Assembly (NCBI GenBank): GCA_964387845.1
Contig: CAYLXA010000002.1
Span: 211,584 to 275,583, forward strand
DNA: 64,000 nucleotides
Direction of reading: 5' to 3'
Source: an uncultured bacterium
GTDB lineage: Bacteria > Omnitrophota > Omnitrophia > Omnitrophales > Abzuiibacteriaceae
How positions within the stretch are numbered: position 1 is the first letter of the stretch; each line of letters opens with the position of its first letter. The translations under genes and the position numbers were made by a program. Below, in pieces: positions 40,901 through 50,543 of this stretch. The notes beneath the pieces were generated by a model that worked only from the letters and a program-made list of their open reading frames with translations, did no database searches and was not told the DNA's origin.

Positions 40901-41295
40901 TTGCTTAAATATTCAAGTGTGCGGCTTCTCGCCCAATATAGATCCGTACCGTCCTTAAAAATGACGTACACATAGGAAAACCCAAAATCTGAAAATCCCC
41001 GAATGGCTTTGACATTTGGCGCACCCAACATCGAAGTGACAATGGGGTAAGTCACTTGGTCTTCAATAATGTCCGGGCTTCTGTCCCATCTTGAATAAAT
41101 AATGACTTGCGTATCAGAAAGATCAGGAATCGCATCGAGTGGAATACTTTTAATCGACCACACAGCTGCGGCAATCGCAACAGCAGTGAGAATAAAAATA
41201 AGGAATTTGTTATGCGCTGAGAATTCGATGATTTTTTCGACAAAACCGCCCTGCCTCAGCTTGTGCGATTGAAGCCCTTCTTTTTCATCCGCCAT
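37975..41295 (-). CDS. heavy-metal efflux RND permease, CusA/CzcA family
   Basis: The 1106-aa protein has 12 TM helices and large periplasmic loops, with an HME-RND family N-terminus. Confidence 0.9.
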   Translation of the reverse strand: MADEKEGLQSHKLRQGGFVEKIIEFSAHNKFLIFILTAVAIAAAVWSIKSIPLDAIPDLSDTQVIIYSRWDRSPDIIEDQVTYPIVTSMLGAPNVKAIRGFSDFGFSYVYVIFKDGTDLYWARSRTLEYLSKIIPRLPQGVQTELGPDATGVGWVFQYALVDKTGKHNLQELRSFQDWYLRYHLQSVSGVAEVATLGGFVKQYQITVDPNKLLAYNIPLTKVVEAIRSGNQEVGGRLIEFSGAEYMVRGRGYGKSVEDFEQIVVAVDSKGTPVLVKHIGTVSLGPEIRRGLADLDGQGDTVTGTVIMRSGENALNVINRVKAKIKDLGPSLPVGVELVVTYDRSELIEHAIDTLKHQLFEEMIIVSIVILIFLWHFPSAVIPIVTIPISVLLSFIFLHRMNLTSNIMSLSGIAISIGVLVDGAIVEVENAYKRLEQWIEGGRKGDYHAIRLQALKEVGPAVFFSLLVIAVSFMPIFTLVDQEGRLFKPLAWAKNLAMAVAAILAITLDPALRMLFTRMEPFKFKSKWASKIATTVAVGTYYPEEKHPVSKVLFRIYEPVCRFVLKHRKTTIVTALFLVLTTIPIYLRLGSEFMPPLWEGSLLYMPTTLPGISVASAQKLLKKQDQILKSFPEVERVFGKSGRIESSTDPAPFSMGETVVTLKPHGEWRKKTRWYSKWMPEWFKWPFEYIWPERISHEDLINEMDQALKLPGTTNAWTMPIKNRIDMLTTGVRTPIGIKVLGSDINEIEKIGTHLEMILKDVPGTRSIYAERVAGGYFIDFDIKRDEIARYGLSIADVQMVIMSAIGGENITTTIEGRERYPVNVRYPRELRDDIEKLKRVLVPTMAGQHIPITQLADIRMVTGPAMIRNENGLLAGYVYVDMAGRDIGTYVEEAKKIVAKELKLQPGYALLWSGQYENMIRVKERLKVVLPLTLFLICILLYMNTRSAVKTGIVLLAVPFSLIGAVWLLWILGYNVSIAVWVGMIALMGLDAETGVFMLLFLDLSYHDAIEKGKMKTEEDLEEAIIHGAVKRVRPKMMTVMAAFMGLIPIMWASGAGSDVMKRIATPMIGGLFTSFILELLVYPVVYAIWKWKFEMKEGKAAWIVS

Positions 41296-42562
41296 GTTGA
41301 TGCCCTCCGCCTCCGCCCATTCCCTGAAGCGCCGCTTTTAAACGGCTTTCCGAGTCAATCAGAAAATTGCCGCTTGTCACAACGATCTCACCTTCCTCAA
41401 GCCCGCTTTTGACTTGATAACCATTTTCCGTTTTGACTCCCAAGCTTACTTCGCGGGGCTCAAAGACACCTCCTTCTTTCATCACGAAAACAACGTTTTT
41501 CTCGCCCGTTGAAAATACCGCTTCCGTGGGAACCGTCACGCTTTCTCCCAAATTAATTTTGAGCATCGCGTTCGCGTACATTTCCGGTTTGAGCAAACCT
41601 TCCGGATTCTCAAGAATCGCCCGAACGCGCACAGACCGCGTCATGGGATCGAGAACAGAATCAATCGAACGGATAACTCCTTGAACCTTTTTATCCGGAA
41701 CAGACGGAATTTCAATTTCAAGCGTATCGCCAACTTTCACAAGGGGGATTTCATATTCATAAATCGGCGCATAAAGCCACACGCGGCCCCCCACATCGGA
41801 ATAAAGAAGAGAGCGATCCGGTTTTCCCAAAGTTTCTATTTCGCCGACAAGATCGCTGCTTAATCCGAGAAGTCGCAGCTTAATTTTGGCGGAATCGACA
41901 AGCTTCGCGGCTTGTTCTTTAATTTCCGGAACTGCGTTTTCGGCTTTTTTGAGAGCGCTAATCGCTTGTAAATACTCTTCTTGTGCTTGATAAAGCTCAG
42001 GGTCATAAGCAATGCGGCCTACGGTGCGTATCGTTTTTTCAATAACCATTTTTTTCACCGGCGCCGTCTCAATTCCGATTGCCTGTTGTTTGTCATGCGA
42101 TACAGTCACTTTGGCGTAGCCCTCGGGCGCCATTTGTTTAATCAGGATTCCTAAATCTTCACCGCAGTGAGGGCATTTGCCCGTTTTCGCAATTTCTTCC
42201 GTTATGGCAAACATGCACTTGCCCATTTTGCATTTATGAAGAAGGCAAATCTCTCCGGGTTTCATATTCATTAACTCTTTTATGGTTAATTCTTTAACAG
42301 CATCTGCGCCAGTGGGCGTAGCTTGTTGATGAGCTTCGTGAGAAGATTGTTCGCTGGTCTCTTCTTTTTTCACGAGCGACATATTGCAGATTGGGCAGCT
42401 GCCCGGGCGGTCGGACGTGTAAGTCGGATGCATGGGACAGTAATAAAGAGCCTTTTTTGATGATACTTTTTGACCCGCACCTTGGATAATTCCAGATTGG
42501 TAAGCCCAAATTCCTCCAAAGACGACAATAAAGATTAAAGCAATTGGAATAATTCTTTTCAT
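41285..42562 (-). CDS. RND efflux periplasmic adaptor (CusB-like) with N-terminal CPMHP-type metal-binding module
   Basis: The N-terminus reads YYCPMHPTYTSDRPGSCPICNMSL, with a second KCPHCGEDL motif, ahead of the HlyD-like barrel and lipoyl regions. Confidence 0.8.
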   Translation of the reverse strand: MKRIIPIALIFIVVFGGIWAYQSGIIQGAGQKVSSKKALYYCPMHPTYTSDRPGSCPICNMSLVKKEETSEQSSHEAHQQATPTGADAVKELTIKELMNMKPGEICLLHKCKMGKCMFAITEEIAKTGKCPHCGEDLGILIKQMAPEGYAKVTVSHDKQQAIGIETAPVKKMVIEKTIRTVGRIAYDPELYQAQEEYLQAISALKKAENAVPEIKEQAAKLVDSAKIKLRLLGLSSDLVGEIETLGKPDRSLLYSDVGGRVWLYAPIYEYEIPLVKVGDTLEIEIPSVPDKKVQGVIRSIDSVLDPMTRSVRVRAILENPEGLLKPEMYANAMLKINLGESVTVPTEAVFSTGEKNVVFVMKEGGVFEPREVSLGVKTENGYQVKSGLEEGEIVVTSGNFLIDSESRLKAALQGMGGGGGHQHGG

Positions 42563-49089: not shown

Positions 49090-49103
49090 TTTCTCTCCTC
49101 CAA

Positions 49104-50543
49104 TTACATTTTCATGTTTTTGTGATCTTCTGGTTGATCAGAAGACATTGCATTTGCTGCCGAGTCTTTCGGCAACGATTCCGCCTGAAGAGTCATTCCG
49201 CAAATTGAGCAAGAGCCCGGGGTTTTCTGATGCACTTCTGGATGCATCGGACAGGTGTAGATTTGGTTCTCCGACTCAAAAATATTCACATCCCCAGGAA
49301 CTCTTTCCGACACGGTTCCGGACGGATTTTTGTACCATCCAAAATCGCCAGGCAGCTTTACTTGTTTTGTGTATGCTTCAGCTGTCTTAAAATCGGGGAT
49401 ATCTTCATGGACTTTCAGGACTGTGAACATGCCACCCATTCCAATCGCCCCAAAAGGCCCATCTCCTGCCATCATGGGAAGCGTATTTTCAGGACCTTTC
49501 ATGTGTTTGACGTGTTCGAGATGCTCATACATCCCTTTTTCACCCATCGCCATGTAACCAGGAACGAGGGCTTTAATTTTTTCTTCAACGCCTTTTTGGT
49601 CAACTCCAAGCACATTCGGAATATCATGTCCCATCGCATTCATGGGGTGATGCCGAAGGTGACAATGAAGCGCCCAGTCCCCGGGGATCGCGATGAATTC
49701 ATAATCGCGGGTTTGACCGGGGCCAATAGCCACAGTGGTTTCAGGCCACTGGGCAGATTCTGGGATATCTCCTCCGTCAGTAGCGACCGTTTTAAACGTG
49801 TGGCCATGCATGTGGATGGCATGAAAATCCTGTCCCACATGTCCAATGCGAACGCGCACCCGTTCACCGGGTCTGGCGAGAAGCGGAGCCGTGCCGGGAA
49901 ATGCGCGGCTGTTAAACGTAAAGATATTGAAATCCGTCATGACGTTGGGATCCGGACGAGAAGTTCCGGGTGCAACAAACCATTCATTGAGGAAGATCGC
50001 GTAGTCTCTGTCGATTTTTGGGCTTCTTGTTCTGGGATGAATGATGAAAAAGCCCATTGTCCCAAGACCGATTTGCACCATCTCATCACCGTGAGAGTGG
50101 TACATCTGGGTGCCGTGTTGAACGAGCGTAAATTCGTAGGCAAATGTCTCGCCCGGCATGATGGGTTTTTGTGTCAATCCCTGAACACCATCCATGCCGC
50201 TCGGAAGAATAACGCCGTGCCAGTGAACGGCTGTAGGTTCAGGCAATTTGTTGGTCACAAGAATCCGGACTTTATCACCTTCAACTGCTTCGATCGTGGG
50301 CCCCGGGGTTTGTCCGTTATAGCCCCATGCTTTGATCTTCATACCAGGAGCCATCTCCCATTCAATTTCCTCTACCGTGAGGTGGAATTCCTTCACACCG
50401 TCCACCATTTTCCAAGGAAGGGTTGAACCATTCAGTGTAACGACAGGCGTGTAAGGTAATTCTTCTGCGCTAGCCAATTTGCTGAATGCAAATCCTACAA
50501 TAACAATCACAAATATGTGTTTAATGATCTCGTTTACTTTCAT
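49104..50543 (-). CDS. multicopper oxidase with a C-terminal CPMHP-type metal-binding module
   Basis: Copper-site motifs are present (HWHG, [13 protein letters not shown]). The C-terminus reads [25 protein letters not shown]. Confidence 0.85.
   Translation of the reverse strand: [479 protein letters not shown]

Follow-up and report, generated by a model that had tools for sequence, protein, structure and literature searches.

The heavy-metal-binding domain in a copper/silver resistance island of an uncultured Omnitrophota bacterium: copies in an efflux adaptor, a small secreted protein and a multicopper oxidase

We analysed a 64 kb stretch of contig CAYLXA010000002.1 (positions 211,584 to 275,583; the whole stretch is called the window) from an uncultured bacterium of the Omnitrophota, in which three genes code for proteins carrying the same short motif rich in Cys, Met and His: the periplasmic adaptor of a resistance-nodulation-division (RND) efflux system, a small His-rich protein and a multicopper oxidase (MCO). 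The three proteins are part of a copper/silver resistance island, which contains a CusCBA-type efflux system, a P-type ATPase, a pair of extracytoplasmic function (ECF) sigma and anti-sigma genes, and a TolC-like gene paired with the oxidase. The features that concern us most are as follows (positions within the window).

37975-41295, minus strand: CusA-like RND pump, 1106 aa (ACR_tran 2.6e-216); the gene overlaps the adaptor gene
41285-42562, minus strand: CusB-like periplasmic adaptor of the heavy-metal efflux RND type, 425 aa, with N-terminal membrane anchor (HlyD_D23 1.5e-29, HMBD, CusB_dom_1)
42161-42250, minus strand: second Cys/Met cluster of the adaptor, aa 105-134, ICLLHKCKMGKCMF…CPHCG, between HMBD and adaptor core
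42374-42445, minus strand: HMBD module 1, adaptor aa 40-63, YYCPMHPTYTSDRPGSCPICNMSL; C42, M44, H45, C56, C59, M61; PF19335 58.2 bits
42559-43935, minus strand: CusC-like outer-membrane factor of the RND system (OEP 3.8e-39); the gene overlaps the adaptor gene
48138-48494, minus strand: secreted His-rich HMBD protein, 118 aa with 12 His (PF19335 52.8 bits, no other real family)
48249-48320, minus strand: HMBD module 2, aa 59-82 of the stand-alone protein; C61, M63, H64, C75, C78, M80; PF19335 52.8 bits
49104-50561, minus strand: two-domain multicopper oxidase with C-terminal extension, 485 aa (Cu-oxidase_3 aa 63-178, Cu-oxidase_2 aa 204-312)
49188-49259, minus strand: HMBD module 3, oxidase aa 435-458; C437, M439, H440, C451, C454, M456; PF19335 49.2 bits
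49425-49562, minus strand: Met-rich segment of the oxidase, conserved, aa 334-379 (46 aa, with 8 Met and 4 His among them)
50545-51975, minus strand: TolC-like outer-membrane factor (OEP 1.2e-23), lipoprotein-type signal …FFLAGC; the gene overlaps the oxidase start

An earlier note on this DNA had placed the motif at the N-terminus of the adaptor, at the C-terminus of the oxidase and in the middle of the small protein, and had taken it for a heavy-metal-binding module. Scanning the whole window in six frames for CP[MLIV]H…CxxC[GNDS]M, we found exactly three CPMH…CxxC(G/N)M motifs, all on the minus strand and in just these places; a looser Cys-less pattern, applied to all six frames of the whole window, added no degenerate or CusB-like copy. 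In a Pfam search each of the three scored well over the curated gathering score of PF19335 (23.6 bits), with E-values from 8e-16 to 5e-13, far beyond chance. Each of the three motifs is a copy of a single known module of ∼28 residues, HMBD (for heavy-metal-binding domain), which is already catalogued and whose structure has already been solved (8OVL). As the modules are only 56-68% identical at the nucleotide level, recent duplication was ruled out. The oxidase, free and ATPase copies (the latter seen in related genomes) share the consensus YTCPMHPE[VI]xQxxPGxCPKCGMxL; those of the adaptors make up a separate subtype, YYCPMHPxYTSDKPGDCPIC[GN]M.

The solved structure, determined by NMR, is that of the core of the module at the N-terminus of LpCopA, a P1B-1 Cu+-ATPase of Legionella pneumophila; it consists of a small beta-sheet and a CPxCG turn of the rubredoxin-knuckle type (PMC11970713). 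In LpCopA the Ag+ ion is bound by M44 (from CPMH), C59 (the second Cys in CxxC) and M61 (the Met after this Cys); C42, H45 and C56 are not Ag+ ligands (PMC11970713). All three copies in the window keep this Met/Cys/Met triad as well as the remaining Cys and His of the knuckle (C-x2-H … C-x2-C). Compared with the LpCopA core 8OVL, the free protein gave E = 1.1e-12, the oxidase tail 2.3e-9 and the adaptor 7e-5. The setting of the module is different: in LpCopA it is cytoplasmic and fused to an ATPase, whereas of the copies in the window, which come with signal peptides or anchors, one is joined to an oxidase, one to an RND adaptor and one stands alone, and the ATPase of the window (52941-54833) has no such module. 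Since all three proteins have a signal peptide or a membrane anchor, they are predicted to be periplasmic.

The genes of the RND system overlap, in the order outer-membrane factor, adaptor, pump. The pump matched CusA of the PDB (E = 1.6e-35) with equivalents of M573 and M623 aligned; with the third CusA motif, RIDML, also present, the Cu(I) Met cluster is kept. The adaptor matched the PDB CusB entries 3ne5 (chain 3ne5_B) and 3h94 with E = 2e-22, while its scores for the NCBIfam CusB and RND_mfp families were under their cut-offs; it is therefore a divergent member of the CusB type.

The earlier note had described the module of the adaptor as a fusion; the comparison with Escherichia coli CusB led us to a different view. 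In a phmmer alignment, residues 34-93 of the adaptor were in register with residues 38-98 of CusB; YYCPMHPTYTSDRPGSCPICNMSLV of the adaptor was paired with WYDPMYPNTRFDKPGKSPFMDMDLV of CusB, with M44 = M49, C59 = M64 and M61 = M66 (the domain E-value, 0.03, is weak, though the alignment is positionally consistent). M49, M64 and M66 make up the Cu(I) site of the CusB N-terminal region, CusB_NT, which contacts CusF and triggers the pump and the opening of the channel (PMC6715271). In E. coli it takes up metal from CusF. The N-terminal domains of CusB and SilB thus share with the adaptor the protein family, the position in the protein and the three metal-binding positions. They differ in that E. 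coli CusB has D/Y/S/M where the adaptor has C/H/C/C, the full Cys/His set of the knuckle being kept in the window; in addition, the adaptor has a second Cys cluster that E. coli CusB does not have. Given this register, the adaptor module, as judged by alignment, is the canonical N-terminal metal site of CusB in a form with Cys, and not a new architecture.

Among the related loci described below, HMBD was present in all 13 complete adaptors adjoining the oxidase. The second cluster did not match any family in a Pfam search; its pattern, C.[LM]H.C.M…C.M…CP.CG, was kept in the adaptors of L008, L022, L032, L047 and L038. In several adaptor orthologues a Cys-type HMBD was followed first by the second Cys cluster and then by a CusB-like element of the Met type (ILYW.DPM.P…KPGKSPMGMDLVPVY); in the adaptor of the window the first two metal motifs are present and the third is absent.

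The stand-alone protein starts with a sequence that reads as a signal peptide (MKIRFCMLLLAVVLGFGGNVWA, the next residue being Q). Its residues 24-86 matched not just the core of LpCopA but also the His-rich tail preceding it (8OVL and 3RFU, E = 1e-12); a His-rich tail precedes the module in both proteins, and the cores share the C-P-M-H…C-x-x-C-G-M ligands and 19 of 26 residues. We found 343 relatives of the protein, mostly small and with HMBD as their only domain. In the Pfam search it had no match to PF11604, the profile of the periplasmic Cu(I)/Ag(I) chaperone CusF, HMBD being the sole domain. The protein is not a member of the CusF family, to which it is unrelated in fold and sequence, but it may act like CusF: the role proposed for it is also that of a Cu(I) carrier which is small and secreted and has its gene next to those of an efflux system and an oxidase.

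On sequence features the oxidase is a two-domain MCO rather than a three-domain enzyme of the CueO/CopA type. Its copper-ligand motifs are HWHG at 113, HSHG at 155, HAIHMHGH at 247 and HCHxxxHxxxxM at 299, so that all 12 ligands of the type-1 site and the trinuclear cluster are present; these motifs were invariant in 72 orthologues (alignment A1). An AlphaFold2 model of moderate quality (mean predicted local distance difference test score, pLDDT, 74.7) had no third cupredoxin domain, and the best matches in sequence and in fold (Foldseek) were the two-domain MCOs 2zwn, 3g5w and 3gdc; the score of NCBIfam copper_res_A was 154 against a cut-off of 479. With 2ZWN (mgLAC), 3G5W (Nitrosomonas europaea) and 3GDC the oxidase shares the two cupredoxin domains and the full ligand set. 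It differs from 2ZWN, its best PDB match by sequence, by having the type-1 Cys in domain 2 (HCH, aa 299) instead of domain 1, and from the known two-domain MCOs in general by a C-terminal extension of ∼170 aa with the Met-rich segment and HMBD. Two-domain MCOs are homotrimers with trinuclear clusters at the subunit interfaces. The copper loops at aa 154-159 and 300-305 had low pLDDT in the monomer model, which is compatible with an interface cluster but no proof of one. As to the start, the earlier note began the oxidase at 50543, an ATG; this 479-aa form is identical to a database protein (P0001). The longest open reading frame (ORF) begins at 50561.

Past domain 2 the oxidase continues with the Met-rich segment, a conserved GWYKNP.GTV element, HMBD and a short tail. 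Invariant positions of the Met-rich segment in alignment A1 (numbered by the 479-aa form) include M333, M338, M348, M369 and M372, and the segment is kept in orthologues without HMBD. Through its Met-rich segment, which may correspond to the Cu(I)-binding one near the type-1 site of CueO, CopA and PcoA, and through the resistance context, the oxidase resembles these cuprous oxidases; they are, however, three-domain enzymes exported by the twin-arginine (Tat) route, whereas the oxidase of the window has two domains, a signal of the general secretory (Sec) type and a TolC-like partner gene instead of one of the CopB/PcoB type. Its signal has no twin-arginine motif; such a motif was seen in just 3 of 72 orthologues, nearly all of which have signals of the Sec type.

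The C-terminal fusion of HMBD to an MCO had been called unusual in the earlier note; this turned out to be a sampling impression. Of the 120 best database homologues of the oxidase (61-100% identity), 115 were annotated with PF19335 in addition to MCO domains, and homologues from Elusimicrobia, Omnitrophica, Marinimicrobia and Latescibacteria bear the name ‘copper oxidase’; the fusion is abundant and automatically annotated in public databases. We also searched contigs of one genome per species, where 320 stretches with relatives of the oxidase were found, and examined the best 80 (L001-L080) as related loci. The oxidase ORF was complete at its 3′-end in 77 of them, and their C-termini were in the following states.

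50 of 77 loci: canonical module
11 of 77 loci: variant with a one-residue insertion (CPMGHV…CP.CGM)
1 of 77 loci: module present but frame-shifted (L071)
15 of 77 loci: no module

About 61 of the 77 complete orthologues thus carry the module; they come from more than ten mostly uncultured phyla, with Omnitrophota, Planctomycetia, Elusimicrobiota, Marinimicrobia and Acidobacteriota among the lineages of the orthologues. In this enzyme family, which is widespread and little studied, the fusion is normal. The earlier note had named two findings that would count against it, motif instances without a match to any metal-binding profile and a mutated Cys pair in orthologues. Neither was seen: all three instances match PF19335, and among the 77 the pair was never mutated where the module was present. 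In alignment A1 the positions C, M, C, C and M of HMBD were invariant, both the Cys pair and the two Met among them, with the His conserved in at least 90% of orthologues; over the copies of the loci the two Met were kept in 50 of 54 and 52 of 54. In the literature searched we found no paper on a fusion of MCO and HMBD (HMBD taken in the bacterial sense) or on a cassette of TolC and oxidase genes.

For 8 of the 15 oxidases without a module, HMBD was located in a neighbouring gene instead: at the N-terminus of an ATPase encoded directly downstream (L066, L074), in a small secreted protein or in an adaptor. Over all the related loci, nine neighbouring ATPases had an N-terminal HMBD.

Two variations of the module are worth recording. 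The insertion form, CPMGHV.HQ..PGECP.CGM, was found mostly in oxidases of Elusimicrobiota (L036, L038, L041-L045, L048, L054, L076, L080). In a locus of Planctomycetota (L068) the oxidase at 7638-9593 has four tandem HMBDs, and a neighbouring protein (2062-2874) has several more.

An orthologous TolC-like gene was situated directly upstream of the oxidase, often overlapping it, in 76 of the 80 loci; the other four end at contig ends. The conserved pair includes neither an inner-membrane pump nor an adaptor. A tblastn search of plasmids gave 834 records with relatives of the oxidase (50-56% identity over about 80-90% of the length), from Burkholderia, Ralstonia, Rhizobium, Agrobacterium and others. 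We inspected six plasmid cassettes (L084-L089; Burkholderia, Caballeronia, Rhizobium, Agrobacterium) with flanks of 8 kb or less. All six had the TolC-like gene upstream of the oxidase; the cassette is made of genes for a TolC family protein, a copper oxidase, optionally a cupredoxin, and a small ‘copper-binding protein’, followed by CopC and CopD in Burkholderiaceae. The ‘copper-binding protein’ is CusF: we obtained PF11604 matches of 1e-28 and 2e-26, and phmmer matches in all six cassettes. HMBD-like motifs were absent from all six. Conversely, neither the window nor the 80 related loci had a CusF-like ORF or a cupredoxin gene at E < 1e-3, with one marginal match, E = 0.019, in L058.

The proteobacterial cassette and that of the window share an orthologous oxidase, the upstream TolC-like gene, the Met-rich segment and the GW(Y/F)K(N/H)P.GTV end. 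The oxidase of B. contaminans (L084 4851-6146) has the Met-rich segment, ends just past GWFKHPKGTV and is without HMBD; this one sequence, the one read for its signal, has the Tat signal SRRQFL. The proteobacterial cassettes differ further in having a separate CusF-like gene, with or without a cupredoxin gene, and in three of the six, those of Burkholderiaceae, a CopRS-type two-component system is used where the window has the ECF sigma/anti-sigma pair. HMBD and CusF fill the same slot of the same cassette in different lineages. Of all the evidence at hand, this shared slot speaks best for HMBD having a role like that of CusF, either as a carrier or in presenting the substrate.

Separately, we noticed that HMBD may correlate with the export route of the oxidase: the oxidase of the window and nearly all its close relatives have Sec signals, and the B. 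contaminans relative without HMBD has a Tat signal.

The best reading of these observations is that HMBD is the periplasmic Cu(I) hand-over or sensing module of this lineage. In its complete form, to which we would give a probability of roughly 0.6, HMBD would be the Cu(I) module of the adaptor, a tethered capture domain of the oxidase and, as the free protein, a diffusible carrier. These copies would bind Cu(I) in the periplasm and pass metal from one to another. Each module would bind one Cu(I) or Ag(I) ion. The free His-rich protein could serve as the diffusible Cu(I) shuttle, in the role that CusF-like proteins have in the proteobacterial cassettes; the adaptor module, as the counterpart of the three-Met site of CusB, would take Cu(I) and activate CusA; the oxidase module would capture Cu(I) beside the Met-rich segment and hand it to that segment and to the type-1 site of domain 2. 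Channelling of Cu+ among the oxidase, the adaptor and a soluble carrier, as the earlier note had suggested, is plausible, and finds indirect support in the way that HMBD and CusF complement one another across versions of one cassette.

Several points weigh against this account. First, the periplasmic roles of HMBD are drawn by analogy from LpCopA and CusB; binding of Cu(I)/Ag(I) by HMBD in a trigonal sulfur site is known for LpCopA alone (PMC11970713). Second, the authors of the LpCopA study favoured the cytoplasmic module as a copper sensor regulating the pump, over a role in delivery (PMC11970713). Third, the conservation of C, H and the first Cys of CxxC equals that of the Ag+ ligands, though in LpCopA these three do not bind Ag+; the actual site, its stoichiometry or its redox state (e.g. 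a periplasmic disulfide) may differ, with Zn, a disulfide or an alternative site being possible. Fourth, 15 of 77 orthologues have no module, and HMBD is therefore dispensable for catalysis. Finally, the complementarity was seen in a sample of six proteobacterial loci with short flanks, and CusF may be encoded elsewhere.

The sensing view could be carried further: the modules might all be copper sensors or switches that gate the pump, and perhaps uncover the substrate site of the oxidase, with no passage of metal from module to module; binding of metal would alter their conformation or contacts, as has been proposed for the LpCopA N-terminus and CusB_NT. The LpCopA study backs a sensing role in which a His-rich tail acts as autoinhibitor (PMC11970713), and it is this tail, as well as the core, that the stand-alone protein matches; CusB_NT, too, is a trigger of channel opening (PMC6715271). 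On the other hand, a freely diffusing module has no obvious target to regulate, the substitution for CusF in the cassette suits a carrier better, and E. coli CusB_NT does get metal from CusF. We keep the sensor explanation as a tentative possibility.

One could also think that the module of the oxidase is there for loading of cofactor. An enzyme exported unfolded by Sec needs four coppers, and HMBD could be its built-in metallochaperone, perhaps working together with the free protein. The distribution of signals fits: with Sec signals on the oxidase of the window and nearly all orthologues, and Tat on the B. contaminans relative lacking HMBD, the module correlates with an export route that needs metallation in the periplasm. 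Yet the Tat side of this correlation is one proteobacterial sequence, and the 15 orthologues without the module are of Sec type; also, the Met-rich segment and the resistance island point to Cu(I) as the substrate. The two roles could coexist, but as the explanation of the fusion we find cofactor loading rather doubtful.

A more far-reaching proposal concerns the pair of TolC-like protein and two-domain oxidase as a conserved unit. The oxidase, if trimeric like other two-domain MCOs, could meet the trimeric TolC-like channel by shared three-fold symmetry and dock on it; Cu(I) would be oxidised and expelled, so that the pair would be an oxidase-coupled exit route through the outer membrane for periplasmic Cu(I). 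Here CusF would be replaced, in many uncultured phyla, by a homotypic HMBD relay for Cu(I), in which the free carrier works with the N-terminus of the adaptor, the tail of the oxidase and, in related genomes, the N-terminus of the ATPase. We regard this docking scheme as unlikely.

More unlikely still is that the modules do not handle copper at all and are structural zinc ribbons or disulfide-stapled knuckles, used for docking to a TolC-like partner or to each other. The arrangement C-x2-H…C-x2-C is indeed the classic pair of Zn knuckles, many relatives of the stand-alone protein also match zinc-ribbon families of Pfam, and the rubredoxin-like domain of rubrerythrin is a weak sequence match. 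The authors of the LpCopA study reported a likeness in fold to Zn-binding domains and possible occupancy by Zn, along with the likeness to the SilB N-terminal domain (PMC11970713). Against this, the two Met, irrelevant to a Zn site, show the conservation given above; E. coli CusB lost the Cys and kept the Met; and at these loci the module occurs almost solely in copper/silver proteins (ATPase, adaptor, oxidase).

That the oxidase is a manganese oxidase of the type of Pedomicrobium MoxA, with HMBD unrelated to substrate handling, has as its sole basis the automatic JGI name ‘manganese oxidase’ of the close homologues P0048, P0091 and P0097, and it is very improbable in view of the Met-rich segment, typical of cuprous oxidases, and of the copper-specific context, namely CusCBA with its Cu(I) Met cluster, and CusF, CopC and CopD in the proteobacterial cassettes.

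If HMBD is indeed a shared periplasmic Cu(I) module, many mostly uncultured bacteria, among them Omnitrophota, Planctomycetia, Elusimicrobiota, Marinimicrobia and Acidobacteriota, would use a rubredoxin-knuckle module, not CusF, as a common periplasmic currency of Cu(I). As a natural ‘Rosetta stone’, the oxidase fusion would in that case tie a cuprous oxidase to its copper donor. The system would also offer a periplasmic, experimentally tractable setting for the domain, about whose part in LpCopA, delivery or sensing, there is debate. The pair of TolC-like and oxidase genes, seen from Burkholderia plasmids to candidate phyla, is an uncharacterised and very common copper-resistance cassette. 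The practical outcome is mainly corrective, with the architecture being a common one, the domain already catalogued and solved, and the copy of the adaptor identified as the canonical site of CusB; the substitution of HMBD for CusF and the ubiquitous TolC-oxidase pair are the useful leads.

Other genes of the island can be described briefly. The P-type ATPase (52941-54833, 630 aa) has no N-terminal metal-binding domain, and its transmembrane motif is APC instead of CPC. Regulation of the island appears to depend on three genes: 45931-46551 for the ECF sigma factor, 44802-45299 for an anti-sigma-like protein with zf-HC2, and 44344-45036 for a periplasmic Metal_resist protein of the LTXXQ type. 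A CcmH-like protein (46558-46956), with a weak Pfam match and the motif CICPMNC…ECPCH, and a large DsbA-like protein of the thioredoxin fold (55259-56293), in which we read the motif FECPFC, are encoded in or beside the island; one could speculate that they keep Cys-based copper sites of the periplasm reduced.

46990-47619, minus strand: DUF2231 membrane protein with His-rich ends (DUF2231 4.6e-21)

A homologue of this DUF2231 protein was found near the oxidase in 31 of the 80 loci, mostly downstream. Between the oxidase gene and the free HMBD gene lies 48521-48949, coding for a membrane-anchored protein of 142 aa with the motif GKTYYGCCQGC; relatives are near the oxidase in 9 of the 80 loci. 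Its identity as a YHS protein is unproven, as Pfam YHS matched just 13 residues with E = 0.1.

Two paralogous secreted coiled-coil proteins of no family (38% identity over 84 aa, E = 1e-17) are encoded at 47639-48049, after the free HMBD gene, and at 36889-37344, which lies past CusA after 37652-37990 and 37313-37651; a relative is near the oxidase in L026. The gene 37652-37990 overlaps the end of the CusA gene; its product is small and contains a CBM48/AMPK1_CBM domain (glycogen-binding, E = 7.5e-15), an odd companion of a metal pump. Upstream of the TolC-like gene, 52055-52495 codes for a secreted His/Cys-rich protein of 146 aa that matched no family, with a weak relative in the same position in L021.

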